Positions 6,521 through 50,257 of a stretch of DNA of 54,261 nt are shown piece after piece. The stretch spans positions 1 through 54,261 of the forward strand of contig JALOSW010000001.1 of NCBI GenBank assembly GCA_025458245.1. The letters run 5' to 3'. Below the pieces are notes generated by a model that saw only the letters and a program-made list of their open reading frames with translations, did not search any database and was not told where the DNA came from. The position numbers were made by a program, and so were the translations under genes. Position 1 is the first letter of the stretch. Each line of letters begins with the position of its first letter. Origin of the DNA: Burkholderiales bacterium (lineage in GTDB: Bacteria; Pseudomonadota; Gammaproteobacteria; Burkholderiales; SG8-39).

Positions 6521-6607
6521 GCCGAGATGGCGGAATTGGTAGACGCACTAGGTTCAGGTCCTAGCGCCCGCGAGGGTGTGGAGGTTCGAGTCCTCTTCTC
6601 GGCACCA
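6521..6607 (+). tRNA. tRNA-Leu (anticodon CAG), class II with long variable arm and encoded CCA
   Basis: GCCGAGATGGCGGAATTGGTAGACGC...CTAGG-TTCAGGT-CCTAG...GGTTCGAGTCC...CTCGGCACCA. The cloverleaf was folded by eye. Confidence 0.9.
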
Positions 6608-29138: not shown

Positions 29139-29774
29139 TCAGTACTCGACGGGCACCGGATCGAGGCTGCGCCACAGATACCAGGTCGCGACCGAGCGCC
29201 AGGGCGCCCACGCACCGCCGAACGCACGCAGCTCGGCGGCGCCGATCGGCTCGCCGCCGCGGTAATGCAGGCTGACCGCCTTGCGCAAGCCGAGGTCGTC
29301 GACCGGCAGAACGTCCGGCCGCAGGAGGTTGAAGATGAGGAACATTTCGGCCGTCCAGCGGCCGATGCCGCGCACCGCTACCAACTCGCCGATCACCGCC
29401 TCGTCGTCCATCGCGGGCCACCGCTGCGGATGAAGGGTGCCGCCCCGGAAACGCGCGGCGAGGTCGCGGATGTACTCGACCTTGCGCCGGGACAGCCCTG
29501 CGCGCGCGAGACGGTCGCGGCGCACGCGCAGAATCGCGTCCGGCGTCATCGCGGGCGCGACCGCGACCAGCCGCCCCCAGACGCTGTCGGCGGCCTTCAC
29601 CGAGATCTGCTGCCCGACGATCGAGCGCGCGAGCGTCTGGAACGGGTCGCCCCGGGTCCGCAGGCGCACGCGCGGATGGGCGCGAATGATGTCCCCGAGC
29701 ACGGGATCGCGCCGGGCAAGGGTGCGCCTGGCGCTCGCCCAGTACGGCGGATGCGCCGGGGCATTGCCGATCAC
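29139..29774 (-). CDS. alkA: DNA-3-methyladenine glycosylase II-like (HhH-GPD family, AlkA-like)
   Basis: 211 aa from a GTG at 29774 that overlaps the stop of the upstream gene (GTGA). HhH motif VAVRGIGRWTAEMFLIF and catalytic-Asp context PVDDLGLRKA. Confidence 0.8.
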   Translation of the reverse strand: MIGNAPAHPPYWASARRTLARRDPVLGDIIRAHPRVRLRTRGDPFQTLARSIVGQQISVKAADSVWGRLVAVAPAMTPDAILRVRRDRLARAGLSRRKVEYIRDLAARFRGGTLHPQRWPAMDDEAVIGELVAVRGIGRWTAEMFLIFNLLRPDVLPVDDLGLRKAVSLHYRGGEPIGAAELRAFGGAWAPWRSVATWYLWRSLDPVPVEY

Positions 29775-30826
29775 GAGACCGATGCGAGCGGCAGGTTGAG
29801 CAGGAGGTTCTGCGGCTTCATCCGGACGATGCCCTCCTCGTCCATCGACAGCGCCAGGTAGACCGGCTTGCCCGCGATGTCCGGGCGCATCACCTGCGGG
29901 TCGGCGAACTCCATCCGGAAGAGCCCGAGCACCCGCTGCATCCGGCCGGGCTCCACGTCCTCTCCGTTCCAGAGATCGTTCAGCAGTCCCGTCGACTGCG
30001 CGTCGAGGCCGATGTGCCAAGCCCAGCGCTCGTCGGCGATCGACTGCAGCGATTCGACCCGCACCGCCGCACCGGTGAAATGCGCGATCCACTTCTCGAC
30101 CAGACGGCAGAACGCGCGGGTCGCGGCGCGGCCATGGTTGAGACTCATCACGAAGTCGTGCCGCTGGTCGCGCAGCCAGTACATGTGCGCGTTCTCGGCG
30201 TCGAGGACATCGAGGTTGACCGCCTTCATCGGCGTCTGCGCCTCGACGATCAGCCGCCCGAGGCTGCCATAGGCGCCGCCGGTGGCATGCATCTCGACCG
30301 TCTCGCGATCGGCGAGCATCACCGCGCCGTCCGCGACGTTCGCCTTCTGTTCACGATAGAACAGTTCGCCGGCGCGCGCCTCCAGCGGGTCGTCGGTGCC
30401 CTCGAGGATATTGCGCACGATGATCTGCGCGAGCTGGTCGAGAAAAAGAGGCGGCACGCTGACGTTGCCCTCGCGGAAGATCGCCGCGTAGCACGCCTCC
30501 ACGGTCGGCGCCGCCATCAGCCGCCGCCGAAAGTCGAGCAGCACGCCATAGTTGAAGCGCGTGTCCTCGTCCTCGATCGCCGCAATATCGCCCTCGGTCA
30601 CCGCGCGGCGGGGATCGGCCATGAGCGACTCGTGCAGCGCGATCTCGCCCGGGCCCGACTCCTCGACCGGGCGGATCTCGGGGCGGGCGAGGTAGGCACG
30701 GAAGAAATCGTCGGTCGCGACGAGCTTGCCGTCGGCGTCGCGCACGAGCAGGTGGAACCCCGAATTTCTCCAGAAGTCCGGCATGGATCCGTGCAGGATT
30801 TCAGCCGGCCGCTGGCGCGTAGGCAT
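29771..30826 (-). CDS. Conserved hypothetical protein, no recognisable catalytic motif
   Basis: 351-aa ORF with coding-like composition. The ATG at 30826 overlaps the HNH gene by 26 nt. An ATG at 30784 (MPDFWRNSGF) is an alternative start. Confidence 0.6.
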   Translation of the reverse strand: MPTRQRPAEILHGSMPDFWRNSGFHLLVRDADGKLVATDDFFRAYLARPEIRPVEESGPGEIALHESLMADPRRAVTEGDIAAIEDEDTRFNYGVLLDFRRRLMAAPTVEACYAAIFREGNVSVPPLFLDQLAQIIVRNILEGTDDPLEARAGELFYREQKANVADGAVMLADRETVEMHATGGAYGSLGRLIVEAQTPMKAVNLDVLDAENAHMYWLRDQRHDFVMSLNHGRAATRAFCRLVEKWIAHFTGAAVRVESLQSIADERWAWHIGLDAQSTGLLNDLWNGEDVEPGRMQRVLGLFRMEFADPQVMRPDIAGKPVYLALSMDEEGIVRMKPQNLLLNLPLASVS

Positions 30827-31394
30827 CCAGCACGCGGCTCCCCGAGGCCACGTGCGGGACCAGGAACTCCATCTGATCCGAGAGGATCTTCCGGTTGGTG
30901 AGGATGAGGTACTCGGCCTTGTTCGGCACGTACGGGGCGTAGAGAAGTTCGATGCCCGCCTCTTCCGGCGTGCGGTTCCGCTTCATGCCGTTGCAGTGGC
31001 GGCAGGCCGTGACGACGTTCATCCAGCCGTCGCGGCCGCCGCGCGACAGCGGCAGGATGTGGTCGCGCGTGAGCCGGAAGTAGGAGAACTCGCCGCCGCA
31101 ATAGGCGCAGATCTGGCGATCACGGCGGAACAGCTCGCGGTTGGAGAGCGGCGGAATCTGGTGGAAGCCCTTCATCGCCATCGCTCGGCCCCGTATCGCC
31201 ATGATCGAGTGCCCGCTGATGGAAGAGCGCTGCCCGGTCGCGCGCGATACGCCGCCGTAAACCGTGAACGCGACTTCACCGAGCGTCCAGGCGACCAGGT
31301 TCTTGGCGTAGTAAAAGCAGGCCTGTTGCCACGTGACCCAGCGGTGCGGGACACCGTGCGAGTCGAGGGTGAGGATCAGCGGCGGCTCGGCCAT
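30801..31394 (-). CDS. HNH endonuclease family protein
   Basis: 197 aa. The motif is CAYCGGEF...DHILPLSRGG...NVVTACRHCNGMKRNR. Confidence 0.85.
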   Translation of the reverse strand: MAEPPLILTLDSHGVPHRWVTWQQACFYYAKNLVAWTLGEVAFTVYGGVSRATGQRSSISGHSIMAIRGRAMAMKGFHQIPPLSNRELFRRDRQICAYCGGEFSYFRLTRDHILPLSRGGRDGWMNVVTACRHCNGMKRNRTPEEAGIELLYAPYVPNKAEYLILTNRKILSDQMEFLVPHVASGSRVLDAYAPAAG

Positions 31395-31527: not shown

Positions 31528-32382
31528 TCAGTTCAGGGCCGACGCGAGCTGCCGCCGATACTCGCGCACGAGGTCCGGATCACCCGAGGCGAGGCTGAAG
31601 ACGCGGAGCAGCGTCTGCCGCGCCTGCTCGCGCAATGCGCCGCGGTCGCGCCGGACGACTTCGAGCAGCTCTTTCATGGCCGATTCGTAGCGGGCTTCGA
31701 CCGCGAGGCGTTCGCCGAGTGCGAGGCGCGCGCCGAGGTCGGCGGGATCTGCAGCAATGCGGTCGGCGAGCGCGTCGGCCGACGGGAGGCCCTGCACGGT
31801 GCGCCAGCCCGCGACGCGCGCGCGCAGTGCGTCGAGCCGGTCGCTCGACTCGTACTCGGGCACCTTGGCGATCGCCTCCTCGGCGCCCGCCATGTCGCCG
31901 CGCGCCGCGAGCAGCTCGGCGAGCTCCAGGCGTGCCGCTGCGCTCGCGGGCTCCAGCGAGATCGCGTCGCGCAGCTTCGCCTCGGCGTCCTCGAAATCGC
32001 CTTCGGCCAGGGCCTGCGCTGCGGCACGGCGGAGTTTCTCCGCCTTTGAGGGCACGAGTGAGTCGAGGAACGCGCGCACGCCCGACTCAGGCAGCGCGCC
32101 GACGAACTCGTTCGCCACCTCGCCGTCCACGAACGCCTTGACGTTCGGGATGCCGCGGACGCCGTATCGGGCGGCCGGCTCGGGGTGCTCGTCGGTGTTC
32201 AGCTTGACGAGGACGAATTTTCCGGCGTACTCCTTCGCGAGCTTCTCGAGAATCGGCTTCAGCACGCGGCACGGGCCGCACCACGGGGCCCAGAAGTCCA
32301 CGACGACGGGCTGGGTTCGGGATGCTTCGATCACGTCGCGCTCGAACATGTCGGCGGTGGTGTCGATGGAAACGGCCGTCAT
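31528..32382 (-). CDS. Thioredoxin-domain plus TPR protein (YbbN/CnoX-like architecture, with intact WCGPC)
   Basis: 284 aa. N-terminal VVVDFWAPWCGPCRVLKP followed by a helical TPR-like C-terminal half. Confidence 0.85.
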   Translation of the reverse strand: MTAVSIDTTADMFERDVIEASRTQPVVVDFWAPWCGPCRVLKPILEKLAKEYAGKFVLVKLNTDEHPEPAARYGVRGIPNVKAFVDGEVANEFVGALPESGVRAFLDSLVPSKAEKLRRAAAQALAEGDFEDAEAKLRDAISLEPASAAARLELAELLAARGDMAGAEEAIAKVPEYESSDRLDALRARVAGWRTVQGLPSADALADRIAADPADLGARLALGERLAVEARYESAMKELLEVVRRDRGALREQARQTLLRVFSLASGDPDLVREYRRQLASALN

Positions 32383-32468: not shown

Positions 32469-32482
32469 TTGACCCCGATCAA
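32469..32482. promoter_or_regulatory. FNR/FixK-type box TTGACCCCGATCAA
   Basis: Exact TTGA-N6-TCAA, 9 of 10 to TTGAT-N4-ATCAA. A TAGGCT -10-like hexamer (32504-32509) follows 21 nt downstream on the plus strand, pointing at the DksA-like gene. Confidence 0.5.
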
Positions 32483-32617: not shown

Positions 32618-33013
32618 ATGAGCGCCCTCACCCAGACCCAGATCGAGATGCTCAAGGAGCGCATGCTGACCCGGCGCGGCGAACTCGTCACCGAAATCAA
32701 GGACAAGCTCGCGGAGAGCCGCGAGCACTCGAGCCTCACCACGCTCGAGCAGCGCCTGGAAGGCGGCGACTCCGCGCTCGCGGATCTCATCGCCTCCACC
32801 GACATGGCGATGGTGCGGCGCGACGTCGAAGAGATGCGCGAGATCGACGCGGCGATCGGACGGATCGAATCGCGCGCCTACGGCGACTGCGCGGAATGCG
32901 GCGAGCCGATCGCGTTCGCGCGCCTCGAAGCCGAGCCCACCGCGACGCGCTGCGTGCGCGACCAGGAGCGATGGGAGCGGGAACACGGCAAAGGGCCCGG
33001 TCACTCGCTCTAG
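32618..33013 (+). CDS. DksA/TraR-family zinc-finger protein with a degenerate (3-Cys) finger
   Basis: 131 aa, coiled-coil N-terminus, then CAEC-N17-CVRD (the fourth Cys is replaced by Asp). Confidence 0.75.
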   Translation: MSALTQTQIEMLKERMLTRRGELVTEIKDKLAESREHSSLTTLEQRLEGGDSALADLIASTDMAMVRRDVEEMREIDAAIGRIESRAYGDCAECGEPIAFARLEAEPTATRCVRDQERWEREHGKGPGHSL

Positions 33014-39204: not shown

Positions 39205-39486
39205 TCAGTGGTCTTCGATCCTCGGCACGCCCTCTTCCGCGGGCACGCCGGTGTCGGGGTCGATCCACTCGGAGATGCCGATCTCGGCCTCGGCCTCCTC
39301 GAGCGACTCGCCCGGCTCGTAATCGGACTCGGGCGAGTACTCCATGTCGGCGACGGCGTCGGCGAGCGTCTTGAACGGACCCGCCTCCTCGCCGGTGATC
39401 TTGGACTTCCAATAGAACCCGTCGGGACGCTCGAGGACGATCGCGTCTTCGAATTCGGGAAGCGGCTCGGGCTTGGCTTTCTTCAT
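39205..39486 (-). CDS. Small acidic hypothetical protein
   Basis: 93 aa from MKKAKPEP, with AGGAG 7 nt upstream. Very Glu/Asp/Pro-rich. Lies 82 nt downstream of groEL. Confidence 0.55.
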   Translation of the reverse strand: MKKAKPEPLPEFEDAIVLERPDGFYWKSKITGEEAGPFKTLADAVADMEYSPESDYEPGESLEEAEAEIGISEWIDPDTGVPAEEGVPRIEDH

Positions 39487-39568: not shown

Positions 39569-41188
39569 TCACATTCCCATGTCGCCCATCGACGGCGCGG
39601 GCTCCGGCTGCGACGGGATCTGCGCGATCATGCAGTCGGTCGTGAGGATGAGCCCCGCGATCGACGCGGCGTTCTGCAGCGCGGCGCGCGTCACCTTGCA
39701 CGGATCGAGGACGCCCATCGCGACGAGGTCGCCGTAGTCGCCGGTCGCGGCGTTGAAGCCGAACGCGCCCTCGCCCGCGACGACGCGCGCGACCACCACC
39801 GAGGGCTCCTCGCCGGCGTTCGCGACAATCTGCCGCAGCGGCTCCTCGAGCGCGCGCAGCACGATCCTCACGCCCGCATCCTGATCCGGGTTCGCACCGC
39901 CGAGCGCGCCGATCGCCGCGCGGGCACGGAGCAGCGCGACGCCGCCGCCCGGCAGCACGCCCTCCTCGACTGCAGCGTGCGTGGCGTGCAGGGCGTCTTC
40001 GACGCGTGCCTTGCGCTCTTTCATCTCGGTTTCGGTCGCGGCGCCCACCTTCACGACTGCCACGCCCCCCGCGAGCTTCGCAGCGCGCTCCTGCAGCTTC
40101 TCGCGGTCGTAATCGCTCGTCGCGTCCTTCGCCTGCTGCTTGATCTGCGCGATCCGCGCCTCGATGGCTTTCGGGTCGCCCGCGCCGCCGATGATCGTGG
40201 TGTTCTCCTTGTCGATCTCGACGCGCTTCGCGCGCCCGAGCATCTCGGGCGTCGCCTTCTCGAGCGTCACGCCGATCTCGTCGCTCACGACGCGCCCGCC
40301 GGCGAGAATCGCCATGTCGTCCAGCATCGCCTTGCGGCGGTCGCCGAAACCCGGCGCCTTCACCGCGCACACCTTGATGACGCCGCGCAGCGTGTTCACG
40401 ACCAGCGTCGCGAGCGCCTCGCCCTCGACGTCCTCGGCGACGACCAGCAGCGGTTTTCCCGACTTGGCCACGGCTTCGAGAATCGGAATGAGGTCGCGCA
40501 CGCCGGCGATCTTCTTGTCGTGCAGGAGGATGAGGACGTCCTCGAGCACGCAGATCTGCTTCTCGGCGCTGTTGACGAAGTACGGCGAAAGATAGCCGCG
40601 GTCGAACTGCATGCCCTCGACGACTTCGAGCTCGCTCACGAGCCCGGAGCCGTCCTCGACCGTGATCACGCCTTCCTTGCCGACCTTCTCCATGGCGTTG
40701 GCGACGATTTCGCCGATCGCGGCGTCGTTGTTGGCGGAGATCGCCGCGACCTGCGCGATCTCGGTGCGCGACGCGCAGGGCTTCGCGAGCTTCGCCAGCT
40801 CGGCGACGATCGCCCCCACGGCGCGGTCGACGCCCCGCTTCAGGTCCATCGGGTTCATGCCCGCCGCGACGTACTTCATGCCCTCGACGACGATGCCATG
40901 CGCGAGCACGGTCGCCGTGCTGGTGCCGTCGCCCGCGACGTCGGAGGTCTTGGAGGCGACCTCCTTCACCATCTGCGCGCCCATGTTCTCGAACGGATCG
41001 GGAAGCTCGATCTCCTTCGCGACGACCACGCCCGAGTTGATGATGGTGGGGGCGCCGAACGACCGCTCCAGCACCACCGTGCGCGCCTTCGGCCCCAGCG
41101 TCACGCGCACCGCCGAGGCGAGCGTGTTGATGCCGGCGAGGATCTTGGCGTGGACGTCCGCGCCGAAGATGACTTGCTTCGCGGGCAT
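39569..41188 (-). CDS. groEL: Chaperonin GroEL (Cpn60) with no adjacent groES
   Basis: 539 aa, [29 protein letters not shown]-terminal MGDMGM. RBS GGGGAGG. Confidence 0.95.
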
Positions 41189-41220: not shown

Positions 41221-41261
41221 ACGATAGTCCTGCGATGCGCCGCGGGCTTGATCCATGTCAA
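41221..41261 (-). promoter_or_regulatory. Putative FNR/FixK-dependent promoter of groEL
   Basis: The box at 41248-41261 reads TTGACATGGATCAA on the minus strand (9 of 10 to the FNR consensus). After a 21-nt gap comes TATCGT (41226-41221), about 33 nt before the ATG. Confidence 0.5.
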
Positions 41262-41269
41262 CCGTGAAA

Positions 41270-41331
41270 ACCCGTCGGGCGCGACGGGTACCGCACGCGC
41301 AAACGAAAACGGCCGGGCATGGCCCGGCCGT
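41270..41331 (-). terminator. Two tandem hairpin plus U-tract terminators after hpf
   Basis: Minus strand: ACGGCCGGGC-CAT-GCCCGGCCGT followed by TTTTCGTTT, then ACCCGTCG-CGCC-CGACGGGT followed by TTTTCACGG. Confidence 0.65.
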
Positions 41332-41350
41332 CGCCCGCTCGGCGAACGCT

Positions 41351-41728
41351 TCAGGCTTCGGCCTCGGCCTCGCCCGCGCCGCCGTTCGCGCGCGCGCCGC
41401 GCGCATGGGTCTTCACGTCGCCGCGCCGTTTCGCCGCGTAGTCCTCGAGCTGCCGCTTCGCCGCGTCGAACGCGTCGCGCAGGGCCACGTAGATGTCCTC
41501 GTGGTGGTCGTTGTTCACCACGATCTCCCTGCCCGGGACCGTGATGTCGAGCCGCACCGAAAAGTGTTTGCCCTGGTGCTTGTGCTTGTGCGGGGCTTCC
41601 GCCACCACCCGACAGCCCATGAGCGGCGCGTACACGCGCTCAAGCTTCTGCACCTTCTCGCGGATGCGCTGGTCGAGCGCGGGCGAGTGGTCCATGTCGC
41701 GGACGGTGATCTGAAGTTCGGTCTGCAT
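41351..41728 (-). CDS. hpf: Ribosome hibernation factor, HPF/RaiA (S30AE) family
   Basis: 125 aa, LQITVRDMDHSPALDQRIREKVQKLERVY...HEDIYVALRDAFDAAKRQLEDY. RBS AGGAG. Not next to rpoN, so probably a paralogue. Confidence 0.75.
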   Translation of the reverse strand: MQTELQITVRDMDHSPALDQRIREKVQKLERVYAPLMGCRVVAEAPHKHKHQGKHFSVRLDITVPGREIVVNNDHHEDIYVALRDAFDAAKRQLEDYAAKRRGDVKTHARGARANGGAGEAEAEA

Positions 41729-41780
41729 CGTTGCTCCTTGGTAATACGGGTTCGCCTCGCCCGCCGCGCGCGCGGCGCGC

Positions 41781-43214
41781 TCAGCCCTTGACGCACAACT
41801 TCGGCCGCAGGAACGCCACGCGCCGTGCGAGGCCCGCTCGCTCCGTCGCCTCGGCCACGAGGTCGACGTCCTTGTATGCGCCTGGCGCCTCCTCCGCGGC
41901 TCCGCGCATCGACTTGGTGCGGATCAGAATTCCCCTCGCGGCGAGCGCATCGATCAGCTCGCGCCCGCGCCAGTGCTTCAACGCCTGGTTGCGGCTCATC
42001 GAGCGGCCCGCGCCGTGGCTGGCCGACGAGAACGCGCGGTGCTCGCTCTCGGCCGTGCCAGCGAGGACATACGAGCCGGTGCCCATGCTACCGCCGATGA
42101 TGACCGGCTGTCCTGCCCCTCGGTACCGGGCCGGGAGCGAGGGATGTCCGGGACCGAACGCGCGGGTCGCCCCCTTGCGGTGGACGTAGAGAAGACGGGG
42201 GCGGCCGTTCACGATGTGCGTCTCGGGCTTGCAGGTATTGTGCGAGACATCGAACAGCGTTTCCAGACTTGCGCTCGGGAAAAAGTGGCGGAATACTCTT
42301 CGACTAAGGTCCGCCAGGATCTGACGATTCGCGAGCGCGCAGTTCATGGCCGCGTTCATCGCGCCGATGTATTGCTTTCCCTCGGCAGAGCGGATCGGCG
42401 CGCACGCAAGCTCCCGGTCGGGAAGCGAGATTCCGAGGCGCGCCGCCCCCCTGGCGAGGCTCACGAGGAAGTCGGTGCCGATCTGGTGGCCCAGGCCGCG
42501 CGAGCCGCAGTGTATCGACACGACGACCTGCCCCTCGGTCAATCCGAACGCGTGCGCGGCTTCCGCGTCGTGGATGCGCTCCACGACCTGCACCTCGAGA
42601 TAGTGGTTGCCGGAGCCGAGCGTGCCCATCTCTCCGCGCTGGCGCTTTTTCGCGAGGTCGGAGACGCATTGAGGATCGGCGTCGGCCATGCAGCCACGCT
42701 CCTCGATGAACTCGAGATCGGCCTCCTCGCCGTAGCCCATGCCGACCGCCCAGCGCGCGCCGCCGCGCAGCACTGCGTCGAGTTCGCGCGGCGCGAGCCG
42801 GAGGTCGCCCTCCTCGCCCACGCCCGCGGGAATCGTCTCGAACAGACTATCGGCCAGCGGCCGGGCTACCGGCTCGATGTCCGCGAGCGTCAGGTCCGTG
42901 CGCAGGCAGCGGATGCCGCACGAGATGTCGAAACCCACGCCGCCCGCGGAGATGATGCCGCCCGCGTCCGGATCGAACGCCGCGACGCCGCCGATCGGGA
43001 AGCCGTAGCCCCAGTGCGCGTCGGGCATGGTCATCGCGGCGCCGACGAGCCCCGGCAGCTTCGCGACGTTGGTGATCTGCTCGAGCACCTTGTCGTCCAT
43101 GTGCAGGACGAGGTCCCTGCTCGCGTACAGCCGCACGTCTGCGCGCGTTTCGCCCGGCGCCTTGGGCGCGGACCATGACCAGTCGTCGATCGCCTCGAGC
43201 TTGTCGAGATTCAT
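41781..43214 (-). CDS. rtcB: RNA 3'-phosphate ligase RtcB, long archaeal/eukaryal-like form
   Basis: 477 aa, MPDAHWGYGFPIGGVAAF, GGVGFDISCGIR, SGNHYLEVQ, HCGSRGLGHQ, HNTC...HRKGATRA. Confidence 0.95.
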   Translation of the reverse strand: MNLDKLEAIDDWSWSAPKAPGETRADVRLYASRDLVLHMDDKVLEQITNVAKLPGLVGAAMTMPDAHWGYGFPIGGVAAFDPDAGGIISAGGVGFDISCGIRCLRTDLTLADIEPVARPLADSLFETIPAGVGEEGDLRLAPRELDAVLRGGARWAVGMGYGEEADLEFIEERGCMADADPQCVSDLAKKRQRGEMGTLGSGNHYLEVQVVERIHDAEAAHAFGLTEGQVVVSIHCGSRGLGHQIGTDFLVSLARGAARLGISLPDRELACAPIRSAEGKQYIGAMNAAMNCALANRQILADLSRRVFRHFFPSASLETLFDVSHNTCKPETHIVNGRPRLLYVHRKGATRAFGPGHPSLPARYRGAGQPVIIGGSMGTGSYVLAGTAESEHRAFSSASHGAGRSMSRNQALKHWRGRELIDALAARGILIRTKSMRGAAEEAPGAYKDVDLVAEATERAGLARRVAFLRPKLCVKG

Positions 43215-43326
43215 TCGGTCCTGTGCTCCATGCGCCCGAACACCCCCTCCGGTGCGTCGCCTCTGCCTCTACCGCGCCCGCAGCAGCGGCGATCCGGAGC
43301 GCACCTGACGGCACGTCGTGCGCACG

Positions 43327-43773
43327 CTACACGTCCACAACGCACCGCGCCTCCCAGCCCTCCGGCCCTTCGCGCACCGAGAGCATGGTCAACGTCGCGC
43401 CTTTCACCTCGGTGCCGCGTTCGTGGCGCGCCGCCCACGGTTCCCCCCATGCGTCGCCGCGCCACCGCGGCCCATCGCGTGCCAGCGCGAACGCGCCGAG
43501 CACGAGACCCCGCTCGCGGGCGTGAGCCAGAAGCAGGTTGAGCCAGGTCACGAGCGCGAGTTCGACGTCCTCTTCTTCGAACGCGATTGCCACGCGCGAG
43601 GCCCGCTCGACCTGCTCGGGCGGACACATGATCGCGAACATGGCCCGCGCCGCCGCGACGAACGCATCGGCGACCGTGCTGCCGCGGCCCACCACGCCGA
43701 TGTCCGCTTCGTGCTCGAAATACGCATCCGCGGAAGGCGCGTCCGCGCTCACGGAATCACGACCACCGGGCAT
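43327..43773 (-). CDS. Archease (RtcB activator)
   Basis: YFEHEADIGVVGRG...VKGATLTMLSV...ARCVVDV. Start is either the ATG at 43773 (148 aa) or the GTG at 43752 (141 aa), which overlaps the upstream stop as GTGA. Confidence 0.85.
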   Translation of the reverse strand: MPGGRDSVSADAPSADAYFEHEADIGVVGRGSTVADAFVAAARAMFAIMCPPEQVERASRVAIAFEEEDVELALVTWLNLLLAHARERGLVLGAFALARDGPRWRGDAWGEPWAARHERGTEVKGATLTMLSVREGPEGWEARCVVDV

Positions 43774-44555
43774 CCGGCCCCCTCCAGCAGCGAGGCGACG
43801 CCGCCGGCGTTGCGGACGCTCTCGCGCCCCGGCCAGAGGAGCACGCCCGCACGGACGGCGCGCGCGGCCCGCGCCACCGTGACCGCGTCGCTTCCGGGCA
43901 CGATGAGGTAGTCGACGGCCGCGAGCCCTCTCCGCGCAAGCCATTCGCCCACGCTGAGACGCGCGCGGCGGAAGGCTTCCGGGCTCACGGCGGGAACGAG
44001 CACCACGATCTCGGCGCCGGCGACGTCTGCATACGCCTGCGCCGCGTCCAGCACGCGGTCCCCCGACGCGGAGCCGTCGAGCACGACCGCGACCGGGCGC
44101 GACATCAGTGCAGCGAGACCCCGCCCCGCCGTTCCGCGCCCCGCGATGGGCGCAGCGAAGCTCGCGCCGCGTCCGATGACCACCCAGTCGCCGGTGCCGA
44201 AGTGGGCGAGCAGCGTGGGCAGCATCTCGCCCTGCACGACGTCGAGCCCCCAGGGAATTTGCAGCGCCCGCGCCGTCGCATCGAGCGCCTGCCGCACGAC
44301 TGCCGCCTGCGCACGCAGCATGCGCTCGACCGCAGGCGGCTCGAACGCGCGCCGCTCCGCAGAAGCCCGACCGAGCTCGCGCGTGAACGGCAGCGCCGCG
44401 GCGCGCGCGAGCTGCGCGCTCTGCACGACCACGGCACGCAGCTCCGCCCGGAGCCCGAGCGCGAGCGCTGCCGCGGCCTCGACCAGAGGCTCGACGCGCG
44501 TCGCACTGTCGAGCGCCAGCACGACACGACGCACCGCAAGCGCGTTATCGGCCAT
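43749..44555 (-). CDS. Hypothetical protein with two USP-like (adenine-nucleotide alpha-hydrolase fold) halves
   Basis: 268 aa. Each half looks like VVLALDS...DWVVIGR and VAVVLDGS...GGVASLLEGAGCPVVVIP, resembling UspA-type domains. No clear ATP-binding G-x2-G-x9-G(S/T) motif seen. Confidence 0.5.
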   Translation of the reverse strand: MADNALAVRRVVLALDSATRVEPLVEAAAALALGLRAELRAVVVQSAQLARAAALPFTRELGRASAERRAFEPPAVERMLRAQAAVVRQALDATARALQIPWGLDVVQGEMLPTLLAHFGTGDWVVIGRGASFAAPIAGRGTAGRGLAALMSRPVAVVLDGSASGDRVLDAAQAYADVAGAEIVVLVPAVSPEAFRRARLSVGEWLARRGLAAVDYLIVPGSDAVTVARAARAVRAGVLLWPGRESVRNAGGVASLLEGAGCPVVVIP

Positions 44556-46998
44556 TCGAGCCGCCTCTGCGAGCGCCTCGCGCCCGGTGCTGCGCCGCGG
44601 GAGCGCCGCGACGCAATGCCGCGTACTCGCGAAGCCGCGCTGCAGCCCTTCCGTTCACCGTCTGCTCAGGGTACTCCCCGAGGTGATGCGGCGTGCCGGC
44701 GGGCACCCCGGTCAGCGTCTCGATCGCCTCGTCCACGGTGCGCACGGGAACGACGTGAAAGCGCCCGCCCGCCGCGGCGTCCACGACGTCGTCGCGCAGC
44801 ATGAGATGCGGCACGTTCGCCGCGGGAATGATCACGCCCTGGTCGCCGGTGAGCCCGCGCGCGCGGCAGACGTCGAAGAAGCCCTCGATTTTCTCGTTGA
44901 CCCCGCCGATCGCCTGCACCTCGCCGAGCTGGTTGACCGACCCGGTGACGGCGAGCGACTGCCGGACGGGAACGTCCGCGAGCGAGGAAACCAGTGCGCA
45001 AAGCTCCGCGAGCGAGGCGCTATCGCCTTCCACTTCGCCGTAGGTCTGCTCGAAGACGAGGCTCGCCGCGAGCGAGTGCGGATGCGGCCCCGAGTAGCGC
45101 GCGGCGAGGAACGAGGACAGGATCAGCACACCCTTCGAGTGGATCGCTCCGCCGAGCTGCACCTCGCGCTGGACGTCGATGACCTGTCCGTCGCCGGCGC
45201 GCGTCGTGGCGGTGATGCGCATCGGCGCGCCGAACGCTTCGCCGCCTGCCTCGAACACCGCGAGCCCGTTCACCTGCGCCACCTTCGCGCCGGCGGTATC
45301 GATGAGGAGCGTGCCGCGCACGATCGCCTCGTCGAGACGCTCCTTGACGCGCGCGGCGCGGTCGCGCCGCGCCGCGATCGCGCCGGCGATGTCCTCGCGC
45401 GCGAGAGCCGACGCCCCACGCGCTCGCGCGAGATGGTCCGCCTCGCCCATCAGCGCGACCAGCGCGTCGACGTCCGCCGCGATCTTCGTCGCGTCCCCCG
45501 CACTGCGCGACCCCTGCTCGACGAGCCGAGCGATGGCGTTCCCGGCGAGCGGCAGGAGCCCCTCGCGCCGCGCGATCGTCCCGATGAGCTCGGCGTAGAG
45601 CCGCGTGTTCTCGGGCGTGCGCTCGAACGATTCCTCGAAGTCGGCGGCGACGCGGAAGAGCTTGCCGAAATCCGGGTCGTAGGCCGAGAGGAGGTAATAC
45701 AGGATGCGCTCGCCGAACAGGATCACCTTGACCTTGAGCGGGATCGGCTCGGGCTCGAGGGAAACGGTGGAGACGAGGCTGTACATCTCGCCCAGCGACT
45801 CGACGCGGACGTCGCCGCGCACCAGCGCGCGCTTGAGTCCGTCGTACGCGAAGGGCTGCACGAGCAGCTTCGCCGCGTCCACGAGCAGGAAGCCGCCGTT
45901 CGCCCGGTGCAGCGCACCCGGCTTGATCAGGTTGAAGTCCGTGACCAGCGTGCCGAGCTGCGCGATGTGGTCGATGCGCCCGACGAGGTTCTGGAAAGTC
46001 GGATGGTCGGCGACGACGACGGGCGCGCCGTCGCCCGCGCCGCGGCTCACGATCACGTTGATGTCGTAGCGGCGCAGCCCCGACTCGTCGCGCGTGCCGC
46101 GCATGAGCGCCGGCGGCCCTTCCTCGCGCTTGCGGAAGTCGTCCGCGTTCTCGATCAGCTCCTGCTGGACGGCGTCGAGGTAGCTCACGACGCGCGGCAG
46201 CCCGTCGTAGCGCGTCTTGAGCTCCGCGACCGCGTGGCCCACCGCGAGCAGGACCATCTCCCGATTCAGGGCGCGCACGCGCTCGTGCCGCTCCTTGCGC
46301 CAGCGCAGCGCGTCGCGGATCAGCCGCTCGAGCTTCGTCTGCAGATCGGTGATCGTGGTCTCGACGCGCTTCTGCTCGGCCTCCGGCAGCTTGGCGAACT
46401 CGTCGGGCGCCAGGACCTCGCCGTTTTTCACGGGCGCGAACGAGAAGCCGGCGGGCGTGCGCAGGAGCGCGATCGACTCGCGGCTCGCCTCCTCGCCGAG
46501 TTCGTTCAGGGCGCGCTCGTGCCGCTCGGTGAAATCGGCGTCGATCTCGGCCACCTTGGCCGTGTACTCCTCGCTCTCGAACACCGCGGGGATGGTCGAA
46601 CGCAGCTCCTCCACGAGCTGCTGCATGTCGCGCTTCAATTCCTCGCCGCGCCCGGGGGGCAGATCGATCGCGATCGGCTTGCCCGGATGCGCGAAGTTGT
46701 TGACGTAGACCCAGTCCGGCGGCGGCGTCGCGCCGCCACCGCGCTCGTCGAGGAACTGGCGCACCAGCGTGTGCTTGCCGGTCCCGGGAGGTCCCATTAC
46801 GAACAGGTTGTAGCCGACGCGCTCGATGCCGATGCCGAGCGCGACGGCTTCGGTGGCACGTCGCTGTCCCACGACATGCCCAAGATCGGCGAGCTCGTCG
46901 GTGGTCGCGAACCCGAGCGCCGCGGCGTCGCACCGGCGCACGAGCCGGTCGGCGGGCAGTGCGCGCGCCGCGACGGCGAGGGACGATTCGGGGGTCAC
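44545..46998 (-). CDS. Lon-family AAA+ protease-like protein
   Basis: 817 aa, GTG start. Walker A is GPPGTGKHT. The C-terminal Lon proteolytic domain has Ser in EGDSASLAE and Lys in GGVNEKIEGF. Lies 12 nt after the pncB stop and overlaps the next gene by 11 nt. Confidence 0.8.
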   Translation of the reverse strand: MTPESSLAVAARALPADRLVRRCDAAALGFATTDELADLGHVVGQRRATEAVALGIGIERVGYNLFVMGPPGTGKHTLVRQFLDERGGGATPPPDWVYVNNFAHPGKPIAIDLPPGRGEELKRDMQQLVEELRSTIPAVFESEEYTAKVAEIDADFTERHERALNELGEEASRESIALLRTPAGFSFAPVKNGEVLAPDEFAKLPEAEQKRVETTITDLQTKLERLIRDALRWRKERHERVRALNREMVLLAVGHAVAELKTRYDGLPRVVSYLDAVQQELIENADDFRKREEGPPALMRGTRDESGLRRYDINVIVSRGAGDGAPVVVADHPTFQNLVGRIDHIAQLGTLVTDFNLIKPGALHRANGGFLLVDAAKLLVQPFAYDGLKRALVRGDVRVESLGEMYSLVSTVSLEPEPIPLKVKVILFGERILYYLLSAYDPDFGKLFRVAADFEESFERTPENTRLYAELIGTIARREGLLPLAGNAIARLVEQGSRSAGDATKIAADVDALVALMGEADHLARARGASALAREDIAGAIAARRDRAARVKERLDEAIVRGTLLIDTAGAKVAQVNGLAVFEAGGEAFGAPMRITATTRAGDGQVIDVQREVQLGGAIHSKGVLILSSFLAARYSGPHPHSLAASLVFEQTYGEVEGDSASLAELCALVSSLADVPVRQSLAVTGSVNQLGEVQAIGGVNEKIEGFFDVCRARGLTGDQGVIIPAANVPHLMLRDDVVDAAAGGRFHVVPVRTVDEAIETLTGVPAGTPHHLGEYPEQTVNGRAAARLREYAALRRGAPAAQHRARGARRGGSNGR

Positions 46999-47010
46999 GG
47001 TGTGCCGATC

Positions 47011-48339
47011 TCAGGACGTTGCCCGATCGACGTCGGCGGCGAGTGCCTGCAGCGACGGCGCGATTTCGACCGGATAGGGTTCCGCTGCGTCGGAAAGCGC
47101 CCGCAATCCCGTCGGCAATCGGGCAAGCTCGGATTGAGCGTAGCCCCGCGCGGCGGCAAGCGCAACCGGCGCCCCCACGCGCCGCCCGCCGCGCATGACC
47201 GGCGCGAGCAGCGGCGCGCCCGGCTGCGCATCCGTTTCGAGCGACACGACGTCGCCGGCGAGCGTTCCGTCGGATGCGTATCGGCGAAACACCTGTTTGC
47301 GCCCCGGCCAGGTCGCCTTTCCGCTCGATCGCTTGCGTCTCGCCCGGCCGTCGTATTCCTGCAGCTTGTACACGCAGTCGAGGTAAGGCGCGTCGGAAGA
47401 GGTCGCGAGGCTGGTGCCGATCCCGAACGCATCGATCGGCGCACCCCCGGCGACGAGGTCCGCAACGCGGTATTCGTCGAGGTTGCCGCTCGCGAAGACG
47501 ATGGCGTCGGGCAGTCCGGCGTCGTCGAGGATGCGGCGCACCTGCCGCGAGAGCGTTGCGAGATCTCCGGAGTCGAGCCGGACGCCGCGGATCGCGCAGC
47601 CTTGCGCCGCGAGCGCCGCGGCCTTCCTCGCGCCCGCCACGGTGTCGTAGGTGTCGATCAGGAGCACGGCGTTTTTCGGAAACACCCGGGCAAAATGGGC
47701 GAACGCCTCGGCCTCGGTCTCGTGCGCCTGCACGAAGGAGTGCGCCATCGTGCCGACCACCGGGATCCCGAACATCGGCCCGGCGAGCGTGGTGGCCGTG
47801 CCCGCGAACCCTGCGAGATAGCTCGCGCGCGCCGCGAGCAGCCCCGCTTCGCCGCCGTGTGCGCGGCGCAGGCCGAAGTCGACGAGCCCTTTCCCGCGCG
47901 CAGCGAGCACCGCGCGCGAGGCTTTCGATGCGATCAGCGTCTCGTAGTGGACGAGGTTGAGAAGCCGCGTCTCGAGAAGCTGCGCCTCGGGGAGCGGAGC
48001 CGTCACGCGCAGGATCGGCTCGTTCGCAAAGAACACCGTGCCTTCGGGCATCGCATGGATGTCGCCCGTGAACCGAAGTCCGCCCAGCGTTGCGGCGAAC
48101 CCGCTCCGAAACAGTCCGCTCGCATCGACCCATTCGAGCTCTTCTGCGGAGAAGCGCAACCCCTCGACGAAGCCGAGCGCCTGATCGAGCCCCGCCGCCA
48201 TCAGGAAGTTTCGGTGCGGCGGCAGCTTGCGCACGAACAGCTCGAACACTGCAGTGCCGCGCATGCCCGCGGCGACGTACGCCTGCAGCATGGTGAGCTG
48301 ATAGAGGTCGGTGAGGAGCGGGCTCGAAAGGGGACTCAT
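47011..48339 (-). CDS. pncB: Nicotinate phosphoribosyltransferase
   Basis: 442 aa, LLTDLYQLTMLQAY, DFGLRRAHG, GTMAHSF, SGNLDE. Confidence 0.9.
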   Translation of the reverse strand: MSPLSSPLLTDLYQLTMLQAYVAAGMRGTAVFELFVRKLPPHRNFLMAAGLDQALGFVEGLRFSAEELEWVDASGLFRSGFAATLGGLRFTGDIHAMPEGTVFFANEPILRVTAPLPEAQLLETRLLNLVHYETLIASKASRAVLAARGKGLVDFGLRRAHGGEAGLLAARASYLAGFAGTATTLAGPMFGIPVVGTMAHSFVQAHETEAEAFAHFARVFPKNAVLLIDTYDTVAGARKAAALAAQGCAIRGVRLDSGDLATLSRQVRRILDDAGLPDAIVFASGNLDEYRVADLVAGGAPIDAFGIGTSLATSSDAPYLDCVYKLQEYDGRARRKRSSGKATWPGRKQVFRRYASDGTLAGDVVSLETDAQPGAPLLAPVMRGGRRVGAPVALAAARGYAQSELARLPTGLRALSDAAEPYPVEIAPSLQALAADVDRATS

Positions 48340-48420
48340 GCTTTCAGGTCGCCTCGCGGAGGGCGCCGGCGCCTTGGCGCGGCGCTCGATGCCACCTTGT
48401 CACCCGCACGTACCACCGGG

Positions 48421-48434
48421 TTGACCCATGTCAA
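48421..48434. promoter_or_regulatory. FNR/FixK-type box TTGACCCATGTCAA in the pncB / acyl-CoA-ligase divergent region
   Basis: Exact TTGA-N6-TCAA palindrome (TTGAC/GTCAA). Its centre is about 88 nt from the pncB ATG and about 115 nt from the ligase ATG. Confidence 0.45.
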
Positions 48435-48541: not shown

Positions 48542-50257
48542 ATGAGCATTGCCGACACGCGACCCTGGCTGCGGTTCTACGGGCGCGTCCCGCACCGTCT
48601 CGACTACCCGCAGGCGACGCTCTACGAGGCGCTCGCCCGGACCGCCGCACGCGTGCCCGATGCGATCGCGTGGGACTTCCTCGATACCGAGTCGACCTAT
48701 CGCGATTTTCTCGCGGCGATCGACCATTGCGCCGACGCGCTCGCCGCGCTCGGGCTCGGCACGGGCGACCGGATCCTCGTCTCCATGCCGACTTCGCCGC
48801 AGGGCATCATCGCCTTCTACGCCGCGAACAAGCTCGGCGCCGTGCCGGCGATGATCCATCCGCTCTCCACCGGACCCGAGATCGAGCATTACCTCGACGC
48901 GAGCGGCGCACGCATCGCCCTCACGCTCGATGCGTTCTATCGCGTATTCGCCGGACTGAAACCCCGCATCCCGCTCGACACGCTCCTCCTCGCGCGCATC
49001 CCCGACTATCTCTCGCCGCTCAAGAAGTTCGGGTTCTGGCTCGCCAAGGGCCGCAAGATCCCTGCCGTCCCCGCAGACCCGCGGGTGCGCTGGTGGTCCG
49101 ACGTGATGGGCGGCACCTACCCGGCGGCGCCGCGCGCGGCAACGACCACGGACGATCCCGCGGCCATCCTTTTCTCCGGCGGCACGACCGGCGTGCCGAA
49201 AGGCATCCTGCTTTCCAGCCGGAACTTCATCGCCGAAGGGATGCAGGCGGCGGCTTGGGGCGGCATGACCCAGAGCGACGCGATTCTCGCGATCCTGCCG
49301 ATCTTTCACGGCTTCGGGCTCGGCGTGTGCGTCAACGCGGCGTTCATGGCCGGCGGCAAGTCGATCCTCGTGCCGATATTCGACGCAGCGACCGTGGCGA
49401 AGCTCCTCAGGACGAAGCGCCCCAACCTGCTGGTGGGCGTGCCGACGCTCTACGACGCGCTCTCGAAGGATCCGTCGCTCGCCAAGTCCGACCTCTCGTG
49501 CCTGCATGCGACGTTCTCGGGGGCAGATACCCTGCCCCGCCCGGTGAAGGAACGGTTCGAGACGCTGGTGGCGGAGCGCGGCGGCAAGGTGAAGCTCCTC
49601 GAGGGCTACGGGCTCACCGAAGCCGTCACGGCGATCATGGCGACCCCGCTCGACGAGTATCGCGAAGGCTCGATCGGCATCCCGTTCCCGGACATGCTCG
49701 CGAAAGTCTGCCGACCCGGGACGACGGAGGAGCTCCCGCCCGGCGCCGAAGGCGAGATCTGCGTCGCCGGCCCTGCGGTGATGCTCGGCTATCTCGACGA
49801 TCCGGAAGCGACGGCCGCGACGCTGAAGACCCACCCCGACGGCCGGACGTGGCTGCACACCGGCGATCTCGGCAAAGTGGACGCCGACGGCTTCTTTTAC
49901 TTCACGGTGCGGGCGAAGCGGATGATCAAGTCGTCGGGCTTCAACGTCTATCCGGCGCAGGTCGAGGCGGTGCTCTACAAGCACCCGCTCGTCGCGGAGG
50001 CGTGCGTGGTGGGCGTGCCGGATCCGTCCCAGGTCGAGCGCGTGAAGGCGTACGTGGTGCTCAAGGATGCCTCGCAGGCCGGGCCCGCCGCGGAGCAGGC
50101 GCTGATCGAACATTGCCGGCAGCAGCTCATCAAGTGGTCGTGCCCGCGCGAGGTCGAGTTCAAGGCCGAGCTGCCGAAAACGCGGGTCGGCAAGATCGAT
50201 TACAGGATGCTCGTCGAGGAGCATGTCGCCCGCGAGGGCAGGAAGGAAAGCGCGTGA
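48542..50257 (+). CDS. AMP-dependent acyl-CoA synthetase/ligase
   Basis: 571 aa from [32 protein letters not shown]...DGFFYF..R.K. The upstream part of the track ORF is an extension. Confidence 0.88.

Follow-up and report, generated by a model that had tools for sequence, protein, structure and literature searches.

Gene Content and Organization of the Array

The subject of this work is an array of six minus-strand genes, pncB-lonC-usp-archease-rtcB-hpf, in a 54,261-nucleotide (nt) stretch of DNA from an uncultured Burkholderiales bacterium of soil or water (GenBank assembly GCA_025458245.1, contig JALOSW010000001.1, positions 1 to 54,261; the whole stretch is called the window below). An earlier note, made from the sequence alone, had proposed the array as a candidate undescribed module for RNA repair, proteolysis, and ribosome hibernation. 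The window is a piece of core chromosome from a metagenome-assembled genome. Its GC content is 66–74% throughout and 69–74% over the array, and the genes around the array are housekeeping genes (dnaB, rnr, purA, hflK, hflX, der, hisS, ispG, rlmN, ndk, and accA), together with paaABC and a LIV-type ABC transporter. All six open reading frames (ORFs) were confirmed on the minus strand, and the gene callers of public assemblies predict identical genes. The genes and the terminators that close the unit are as follows.

47011..48339, minus strand: pncB, first gene of the array, nicotinate phosphoribosyltransferase (NAPRTase) of 442 amino acids (aa) with NAPRTase_N, NAPRTase, and NAPRTase_C domains
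44545..46998, minus strand: lonC, LonC-type Lon-like protease/chaperone of 817 aa, assigned from Pfam and from PDB entry 4FWD
43749..44555, minus strand: usp, divergent tandem universal stress protein (USP) of 268 aa and partner gene of lonC, assigned from profile and fold
43327..43773, minus strand: archease, 148 aa from the ATG, or 141 aa from a GTG at 43752 (43327-43752)
41781..43214, minus strand: rtcB, 3'-phosphate/5'-hydroxyl RNA ligase of 477 aa, archaeal or Thermus type (Pfam RtcB)
41351..41728, minus strand: hpf, last gene of the array, short HPF/YfiA-family paralog of 125 aa (Pfam Ribosomal_S30AE)
41266..41332, minus strand: two tandem hairpin terminators closing the six-gene unit (89-nt region, −54.2 kcal/mol, z = −3.5)

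The close chaining reported in the earlier note was reproduced by the ORF calls. There are 12 nt between pncB and lonC, an 11-nt overlap of lonC with usp, a gap of 112 nt between archease and rtcB, and one of 52 nt between rtcB and hpf. The overlap of usp with archease is 25 nt if the ATG is used and 4 nt if the GTG is used, and the gene calls in two close relatives (loci L083 and L086; related loci are numbered in this way throughout) take the 4-nt overlap. The two hairpins that had been noticed after hpf are also real features of the sequence: the first (41332-41308) has 11 pairs and a T-tract and was found by the terminator scan, while the second (about 41288-41271) is weaker, is followed by TTTT, and falls below the T rule of the scanner. 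A scan of the minus strand from 38.8 to 48.8 kb returned the site after hpf as its sole site and none inside the array. The 112-nt and 52-nt gaps hold no U-tract and no unusual structure (z = −1.3 and +0.8), so that a structured RNA or an internal terminator within them is unsupported. Because the genes overlap or lie 12–112 nt apart, no internal terminator was detected, and the double hairpin occurs only after hpf, the array is probably transcribed as a single unit.

The identities that had been suggested for NAPRTase, archease, RtcB, and HPF agreed with Pfam and NCBIfam. The pncB product matches the NAPRTase equivalog NF006696 with 643 bits (cut-off 503).

LonC and Its Candidate Tandem USP Partner

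The 817-aa protein had been described as a Lon-like AAA+ protease with an intact Walker A motif and a Ser/Lys proteolytic domain. The proteolytic half of this description was upheld: there is a Lon_C domain, and its Ser660/Lys703 dyad is intact, aligns with S582/K625 of the Meiothermus taiwanensis LonC (MtaLonC), and is invariant among 10 homologs. The ATPase half was upheld only in part: the GxxGxGK P-loop is complete but is followed by His where Ser or Thr is expected (GPPGTGK-H-T), and the Walker B position (V-D374-A375) has no catalytic Glu. Pfam assigns the protein LonC_helical (residues 95–128), AAA_32 (324–455), LonB_AAA-LID, and Lon_C domains. Its LonB-like AAA-like module is split by a helical-hairpin insertion, an N-terminal LonA domain is absent, and there is no transmembrane segment (maximum 19-residue Kyte–Doolittle hydropathy, 1.36). 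The closest PDB match is MtaLonC (4FWD, E = 4e-91, residues 43–765). By these sequence features the protein is a LonC (MEROPS S16, type C) and probably not an ATP-driven AAA+ Lon.

LonC proteins that have been characterized show no ATPase activity and degrade unfolded proteins independently of ATP (PMC3391209), and MtaLonC is heat inducible and has chaperone activity (PMC3391209, PMC13069640). The window protein shares its domain architecture, helical-hairpin insertion, and Ser-Lys dyad with MtaLonC and with TTC1975 of Thermus thermophilus. The degenerate P-loop is likewise common to MtaLonC and the window protein (GPPSLGKHE vs. GPPGTGKHT), as is a Walker B motif without Glu (LILDA vs. LLVDA). 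However, the window P-loop is nearer to the canonical G-x-x-G-x-G-K than that of MtaLonC, and nucleotide binding may therefore be better preserved in it.

The 268-aa protein has no Pfam or NCBIfam hit, and word-based homology searches returned no or nearly no homologs. A family hidden Markov model (HMM) was grown iteratively from the genes downstream of lonC in other genomes, giving a 37-member alignment. Against the PDB, the profile of this family matched TTHA0350 along its full length (3AB7, E = 1.8e-25), with Rv2623 and further USPs next in rank, and 27 of the 37 members have a Pfam Usp hit on their own. An AlphaFold2 model built from a shallow alignment has two alpha/beta domains at moderate confidence (mean predicted local distance difference test, pLDDT, 69; predicted template-modeling score 0.72), and the top Foldseek matches of this model were 3AB7 (TTHA0350), 3AB8, and 3CIS (Rv2623). 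Profile and model agree in making the protein a divergent tandem USP of the TTHA0350/Rv2623 type, in keeping with the two-domain USP fold of the earlier note, and the profile-HMM searches that the note had called for have given the 817-aa and 268-aa proteins a place in known families.

The putative nucleotide site of the window USP appears altered. About 20 residues of domain 1, comprising the LGSTAR helix and the last strand, are missing from the window protein and its nearest Burkholderiales relatives. Most family members keep the "...G...LGSTAR" of the domain-1 ATP loop, whereas the window copy does not, and its residues 130–145 are modeled with pLDDT below 50. In domain 2 the family consensus has no G-x2-G-x9-G-(S/T) motif. 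To judge from the alignment, the domain-1 deletion may amount to a loss of nucleotide binding in the clade of the window.

The company of LonC was surveyed in 80 loci from GTDB species representatives whose LonC is 46–66% identical to the window protein. In 36 of the 75 evaluable loci, lonC is immediately followed on its own strand by a full-length USP homolog, and the number rises to 41 when contig-cut or shortened USP copies are counted. The carriers belong to the Beta-, Gamma-, and Alphaproteobacteria, Chloroflexota, Acidobacteriota, Chlorobiaceae, Planctomycetota, Deinococcota (Trueperaceae), Rhodothermia (Salinivenus), and Bradymonadales. Across phyla, the two genes are thus a conserved module. 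The other genes of the region are rare near LonC, even in a sensitive HMM search: pncB was found in 6 of the 80 loci, GroEL in 5, RtcB and archease in 3 each, and HPF in 1, along with Balon/baeRF12 proteins (5/80) and CBS proteins (10/80). AMP-binding ligases adjoin LonC in six distant loci of the 80, for example directly after lonC in L052.

In the LonC papers cited here the terms "universal stress" and "operon" are absent and no physiological role or partner is reported; a literature search for LonC with USP likewise gave nothing relevant. The conserved tandem-USP partner gene is thus an addition to the LonC literature. LonC gains a candidate partner whose nearest solved relative is TTHA0350, and both orphan proteins gain a hypothesis. 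A metagenome-assembled genome of the Trueperaceae (Deinococcota, L032) carries LonC and a TTHA0350-type USP as a pair. Locus-tag numbering suggests that LonC and TTHA0350 may be neighbors in Thermus, but the profile search returned no Thermus member and the papers found are silent on the matter. A cultured carrier of a related arrangement is Cupriavidus sp. USMAHM13, whose plasmid (NZ_CP017753.1, 225421-245724, L167) has pncB-lonC amid genes for an FtsH paralog, Hsp20, and alanine dehydrogenase; an IS30 element stands after lonC at the position of the USP gene. Thermomicrobium, seen in the plasmid collection, also carries a LonC gene, for which an incomplete annotation table shows no adjoining USP.

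Archease, RtcB, and HPF

Archease is an activation cofactor of RtcB (PMC3973293, PMC4604427), and in many organisms their genes are joined in an operon (PMC3973293). The window archease was identified by Pfam (Archease, E = 2e-33), and the window RtcB covers the Pfam RtcB model completely (positions 1–426 of 426, E = 1e-164). The best PDB matches of the latter were TTHA1785 (E = 6e-146) and PH1602 of Pyrococcus horikoshii (E = 1e-144). It keeps the catalytic residues, namely those aligned with D95, C98, N202, H203, and H234 of PH1602 as well as the His of "SHN" and the His of HGAGR, and it scores far below the cut-offs of the NCBIfam models for the Escherichia coli type (167 vs. 407) and for the PrfH-associated release_rtcB type (135 vs. 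272). On this sequence evidence the ligase is of the archaeal/eukaryal-like, archease-dependent class. The HPF protein matches PF02482 (Ribosomal_S30AE) with 67.5 bits (cut-off 23.7) over positions 1–88 of 88, while its score against TIGR00741 is 39.3, just under the cut-off of 40.9; its closest PDB match is the HPF chain of 9T0Z (E = 7e-29). By these profile scores it is a short and somewhat divergent member of the HPF/YfiA/RaiA family.

A second census took 80 metagenome loci with an RtcB 75–91% identical to the window protein; lineages were counted after de-replication at 92% RtcB identity. Archease adjoins rtcB almost invariably (73/76 loci; 43/45 lineages). LonC lies within 5 kb upstream of RtcB in 12 of 47 loci (9/33 lineages), and a tandem USP lies upstream in 15 of 64 (9/38 lineages). 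HPF is encoded on the same strand within 1.5 kb downstream in 14 of 61 loci and anywhere in the locus in 21 of 61 (17/38 lineages).

Recurrent neighbors of RtcB were collected by unbiased clustering of neighboring ORFs followed by Pfam scans of cluster representatives. They include CBS-pair proteins (about 20 loci), single USPs (8 loci), Balon-family proteins (Host_attach/baeRF12, 8–9 loci), PolX, PhaC, P-type ATPase, phosphoribosyl pyrophosphate synthetase, phosphoribosyltransferases, and DksA/TraR-type proteins. The sensitive counts for Balon-family genes (Host_attach/baeRF_family12) are 9 of 80 RtcB-anchored and 5 of 80 LonC-anchored loci (e.g., L034:3379-3891 and L097:5851-6363). Their presence next to both LonC and archease-rtcB connects these loci with the Balon hibernation operons, which were described only recently. 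In 14–15 loci a fusion of AAA_33 and an APH kinase directly follows rtcB (e.g., 518 aa at L161:10232-11785); the window has none. From its domains, this APH plus AAA_33/zeta-toxin-like P-loop kinase could be a polynucleotide-kinase-like end-healing partner of RtcB.

FNR-Type Boxes and the Putative Promoter of the Array

Exact matches to TTGAYN4RTCAA, the FNR/Anr-type motif, number 3 in the window against 0.04 expected. Two of them belong to the array and to the unit that trails it.

48421..48434, minus strand: FNR/Anr-type box TTGACATGGGTCAA, centered 88.5 nt upstream of the pncB ATG
48394..48399, minus strand: −10-like hexamer CAAGGT, which begins 22 nt past the box and reads TAGCGT or TAGGGT in related genomes
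41248..41261, minus strand: second FNR/Anr-type box TTGACATGGATCAA, in the interval from the hpf terminators to groEL, with its center 66.5 nt upstream of the latter
39569..41188, minus strand: GroEL paralog gene without an adjacent groES, a separate FNR-box unit downstream of the array (Cpn60_TCP1; NF009488, 839 bits)
39205..39486, minus strand: gene of an acidic 93-aa protein (26 D+E vs. 8 K+R) downstream of groEL, with no Pfam, NCBIfam, or PADLOC hit
32469-32482: third exact FNR-type box TTGACCCCGATCAA, between DksA/TraR-type zinc-finger and thioredoxin-TPR genes

The first box, TTGACATGGGTCAA, sits in the intergenic region that pncB shares with a divergent acyl-CoA ligase gene (AMP-binding, 48542-50257, plus strand), which is followed by the gene of a thiamine-diphosphate enzyme (to about 52005). 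Since the −10-like hexamer begins 22 nt past this box, the box would be near −41.5 of the start that this hexamer implies, which is the class II spacing of FNR-type promoters. In an alignment of the pncB upstream regions of five genomes (LonC 66–100% identical), conservation is limited to the box and the −10-like hexamer, and the position of the box is kept in L083, L086, L090, and L149. The second box, TTGACATGGATCAA, is identical to the first at 13 of 14 positions, is followed by a −10-like TATCGT at class II distance, and recurs unchanged at the same position in L083, where the groEL paralog is also linked to the array. The 93-aa protein is conserved in L083, L084, L091, and L123, and in L091 and L123 it has an FNR-type box of its own.

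Beyond the window, exact boxes stand 20–300 nt upstream of archease in 36 of 73 loci (21/40 lineages), of pncB in 6 of 16, of hpf in 6 of 30, of groEL in 3 of 10, of the 93-aa gene in 2 of 9, and of lonC in 9 of 92. The background is 0.075 boxes per kb on average, or about 0.02 per interval of this size. Boxes just upstream of lonC occur in the proteobacterial loci L003, L009, L025, L042, and L052, and L046 has one between divergent pncB and lonC. The Cupriavidus plasmid has no box before pncB and an FNR-type box upstream of hsp20. Where archease-rtcB is solitary, the box precedes archease. In contiguous arrays led by lonC or pncB (L090, L092, L149), it precedes the first gene and none precedes archease; where other genes intervene between usp and archease (L116, L128, L162), archease has its own box. 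The genes thus behave as parts of a single regulon that have been joined into operons to a varying degree. From this comparison a low-oxygen-type promoter before the array is likely, and the suggestion of the earlier note that low oxygen may induce these genes has gained comparative support, since many related loci have FNR-type boxes ahead of pncB, lonC, archease, hpf, and groEL. The sigma-54 motif TGGCAC-N5-TTGC had no match in the relevant intergenic regions, and its overall matches were fewer than expected by chance.

Reach of the Array among Relatives

The complete arrangement was found in close relatives. L083, L086, and L088 (LonC 84–89% identical) retain the complete gene order together with both boxes and with the groEL and 93-aa genes behind it, and in L090 (LonC 72%) pncB-lonC-usp-archease-rtcB-hpf is kept. 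At greater distance parts are found: lonC-usp-archease-rtcB-hpf in L092, L133, and L160 (LonC 65–68%) and pncB through rtcB in L149 (LonC 66%). L084 (LonC 69%) has pncB-lonC-usp-hpf with no archease and no rtcB; in this locus a 341-aa fusion of CBS and S30AE (HPF-like) domains (13894-14919, minus strand) adjoins the hpf paralog, and an FtsH paralog is near.

A census of rtcB-archease neighborhoods, which the earlier note had recommended, thus gave a divided answer. LonC, tandem USP, archease, RtcB, and HPF do co-occur nonrandomly and recur together in several diverged lineages. However, the full six-gene array is confined to close relatives (LonC at least about 72–89% identical) and is not a conserved unit. 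What is conserved are the submodules, LonC with USP and archease with RtcB, plus the shared regulatory motif.

Comparison with Known Systems

The nearest precedent is the DosR (DevR) hypoxia/dormancy regulon of Mycobacterium tuberculosis, which includes RtcB (Rv2631), Rv2630, the Balon homolog Rv2629, Hrp1 (Rv2626c), the tandem USP Rv2623, the RaiA-like Rv0079, and pncB2 (Rv0573c) (PMC5309233, PMC10901736). Like the array it contains RtcB, a tandem USP, an HPF/RaiA-like factor, and a NAPRTase, in the blocks Rv2623-Rv2631, Rv0079, and Rv0569-Rv0574c. In structural comparison, moreover, Rv2623 ranks second among the matches to the 268-aa protein, and the CBS-pair and Balon genes of the DosR regulon recur in loci related to the array. 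The differences are that DosR is a two-component response regulator whereas the array has a CRP/FNR-type box, that the DosR genes are spread over nine blocks and not packed in one operon, and that the phylum is another. We take Rv2630, which stands beside Rv2631, to be of the archease family, and a literature search for Rv2630 with archease found nothing relevant. The same block presumably includes a protease as well as the CBS protein Hrp1, Rv2625c being by our assumption a zinc metalloprotease and not a LonC.

Balon/baeRF-1 stress operons (Helena-Bueno et al. 2024; Burroughs & Aravind 2019) are a further precedent, in that they link RaiA/HPF hibernation, RtcB, and chaperones (PMC10901736, PMC6514570). 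They differ from the array in two respects: the window has no Balon gene, and LonC, tandem USP, PncB, and an FNR-type box are outside the descriptions of Balon operons. In view of the DosR inventory and the Balon operons, the combination is less novel than the earlier note supposed. Literature searches for RtcB with FNR/Anr and for LonC with USP returned nothing relevant.

Further comparisons are the Anr regulons of Pseudomonas and, within the order Burkholderiales, the lxa locus of Burkholderia cenocepacia. By the main text of its description, lxa is under Anr-like CRP/FNR control, contributes to anoxic persistence, and encodes numerous USPs together with PhaC, a cation ATPase, and an additional FtsH (PMC3721108). 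As far as that text goes, it resembles the array in taxonomic order and in CRP/FNR control, and families of the lxa set flank archease-rtcB or lonC in related loci; it differs as an island of 50 genes against a six-gene operon. The main text contains no term for RtcB, archease, nicotinate phosphoribosyltransferase, or sigma-54 modulation, and its four words beginning with "Lon" looked like "longer" or "long-term." Membership of the array in lxa was accordingly dropped, and the likeness is used as analogy only.

With the archease-RtcB "tRNA splicing operon" of P. horikoshii and Thermus the window shares the gene pair, its order, and the RtcB class, but the window has it as part of a probable stress operon preceded by an FNR-type box. 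To our knowledge, bacteria of this kind have no spliced tRNAs, and the substrate of the window RtcB is therefore presumably damaged RNA. In E. coli rtcBA/RtcR, Salmonella rsr-Y RNA-rtcBA, and rtcB-prfH, RtcB is likewise the ligase component of an inducible repair system. These classical contexts were rejected for the array, which has no RtcR, sigma-54 promoter, RtcA, Ro, Y RNA, or PrfH. In agreement with the earlier note, none of the RtcR, RtcA, Ro, and PrfH families is present among the genes called within 10 kb on either side of the array, and the Rfam scan of the window gave no Y RNA, its single match being a tRNA gene (6521-6604, plus strand).

Interpretation

Considering the packing, the terminators, the conserved box, and the separate conservation of the parts, we read the array as one composite growth-arrest operon with a class II promoter of the CRP/FNR family (FNR/Anr/FixK type), expressed most likely under oxygen or energy limitation, in which four independently conserved modules of one regulon are joined without forming a dedicated machine. 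We put the probability of this reading at about 0.6. Co-transcription, the regulator, and its signal are what we infer, the signal from the family of the box and the repertoire of neighboring genes, while the biochemical roles are borrowed from characterized homologs. A CRP/FNR-type activator at the pncB box would drive a six-gene transcript that ends at the double hairpin past hpf. PncB would maintain the NAD pool by salvage. LonC would act as an ATP-independent protease and chaperone for unfolded proteins, working with its tandem-USP partner, which is presumably a nucleotide-binding regulator or adaptor. Archease-activated RtcB would reseal 2',3'-cyclic-phosphate/5'-OH breaks in tRNA or rRNA, and the HPF paralog would park ribosomes. 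The GroEL paralog and the acidic 93-aa protein would make up a second box-controlled unit.

Several points weigh against this reading. Internal promoters may exist, for example in the 112-nt gap between archease and rtcB, and co-transcription is itself deduced from the layout. The −10-like hexamer of the window, CAAGGT, is weak, half of the archease-rtcB loci lack an exact box, and no gene for a CRP/FNR-family regulator was identified in the window. The metagenome RtcB loci are partly redundant, and they were de-replicated by RtcB identity only. The LGST segment of the ATP loop is missing from the window USP, which makes it doubtful that this copy senses nucleotides. The tight packing of pncB, lonC, usp, and archease would be compatible, too, with a closer functional coupling than joint membership in a regulon.

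Such a coupling, developed from the damage-control operon of the earlier note, would have LonC and USP clear damaged ribosomal or RtcB-bound proteins while RtcB and archease religate rRNA or tRNA and HPF holds the ribosome. The proposal was right in that the linkage is nonrandom and the genes are probably a single unit. As a dedicated coupled system, however, it is improbable. The overlaps at lonC/usp and usp/archease are of the translational-coupling type; LonC-USP-archease-RtcB(-HPF) is contiguous in L090, L092, L133, L160, L129, and L149, whose LonC is only 61–72% identical; RtcB lies within 10 kb of LonC in 3 of 80 loci from three groups (Acidobacteriota, Chloroflexota, and Gammaproteobacteria), where a rough estimate would give about 0.2 by chance; and Balon, a hibernation factor of the ribosomal A site, recurs beside both LonC (5/80) and RtcB (9/80). 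Nevertheless, the modules are mostly found apart (LonC with RtcB in 3/80 loci, with HPF in 1/80; LonC in 9/33 RtcB lineages), L084 has dropped archease and rtcB cleanly, and the members are neither fused nor alike in any specific domain, nor are they known to interact. The known substrates of LonC are generic unfolded proteins (PMC3391209), and we saw no evidence that it clears damaged partners of RtcB or of the ribosome. The six genes are not a conserved machine.

The same architecture could also be read by a member of the CRP/FNR family that does not sense oxygen, such as the nitric oxide (NO) sensors Dnr and NnrR, FixK under FixLJ, or a redox or nucleotide paralog, and would then serve a nitrosative or stationary-phase response. 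All of the FNR branch (FNR, Anr, Dnr, NnrR, and FixK) shares the motif TTGA(C/T)-N4-(A/G)TCAA, and therefore the signal may be O2, NO, redox, or another, which is one more point against our reading. Several Anr-like paralogs are described in B. cenocepacia, some of them within the lxa locus, in the main text of that report (PMC3721108), and MtaLonC is a heat-shock protein (PMC13069640). The neighbors tell another story: they match the low-oxygen-induced lxa set as presented in that text (USPs, PhaC, FtsH paralog, and cation ATPase; PMC3721108) and the DosR set (RtcB, USP, HPF-like protein, pncB2, Hrp1, and Balon; PMC5309233), and we regard a sensor of a different signal as unlikely. A role as an RNA-repair countermeasure against phages or toxins, with LonC as a defense-type Lon like BrxL, is very improbable. 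RtcB systems are widely read as repair of toxin-inflicted RNA damage (PMC6514570), and BREX includes Lon-like proteases. However, PADLOC gave no meaningful match for eight proteins (a lone hit to mad8, E = 5e-4), and on this result the identity as a defense system was rejected; moreover, the locus lies among core housekeeping genes with even GC and no mobile-element features, and its neighbors are metabolic and stress genes, not defense genes. Just as improbable is an accidental juxtaposition of unrelated genes on one strand in one lineage. The full order is indeed confined to a narrow clade, but subcombinations turn up independently across diverged lineages and phyla, with the same box in front of different members.

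Returning to an oxygen- or energy-responsive operon of separate modules, a bolder extension can be offered tentatively, and it is rather doubtful. LonC and the TTHA0350-like USP may be an ancient, conserved two-component proteolytic/chaperone system found over at least eight bacterial lineages, in which the USP would sense nucleotide or energy status for the dead ATPase module of LonC and either gate the protease (hexamer) against the chaperone (heptamer) or deliver substrates. In Betaproteobacteria, a hypoxia regulon of the FNR type would have taken up this pair along with archease-RtcB and HPF, in convergence with the DosR dormancy regulon of mycobacteria. If this were true, RNA repair by RtcB would be a general feature of bacterial hypoxic dormancy.

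The array reveals no new kind of molecular system. What is worth carrying forward is the LonC-USP pair and the FNR-type wiring of archease-RtcB(-HPF). The low-oxygen linkage of the latter in Betaproteobacteria appears to parallel DosR, and bacterial archease-RtcB may thus serve hypoxic survival, under an FNR-type promoter in the betaproteobacterial clade and under DosR in mycobacteria. Because one set of functions (RNA ligase, hibernation factor, tandem USP, NAD salvage, CBS protein, and Balon) is brought together by two unrelated regulators, maintenance of RNA and ribosomes can be argued to be a core need of oxygen-starved, nongrowing bacteria. The compact operon would be a convenient genetic handle for this idea if a cultured carrier were found.

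Other Genes of the Window

The third exact box, TTGACCCCGATCAA, lies between a DksA/TraR-type gene (32618-33013, plus strand) and a divergent gene for a thioredoxin-TPR (YbbN-like) protein (31528-32382, minus strand). A YbbN-like thioredoxin is reported to be induced by micro-oxia in B. cenocepacia H111 (PMC3759415). The DksA-type family of this gene was also seen between usp and archease, or near rtcB, in seven related loci. Farther along, genes for a DUF6352 protein and an HNH endonuclease (29771-31394, minus strand) overlap slightly and adjoin the paa genes; they are unrelated to the array.

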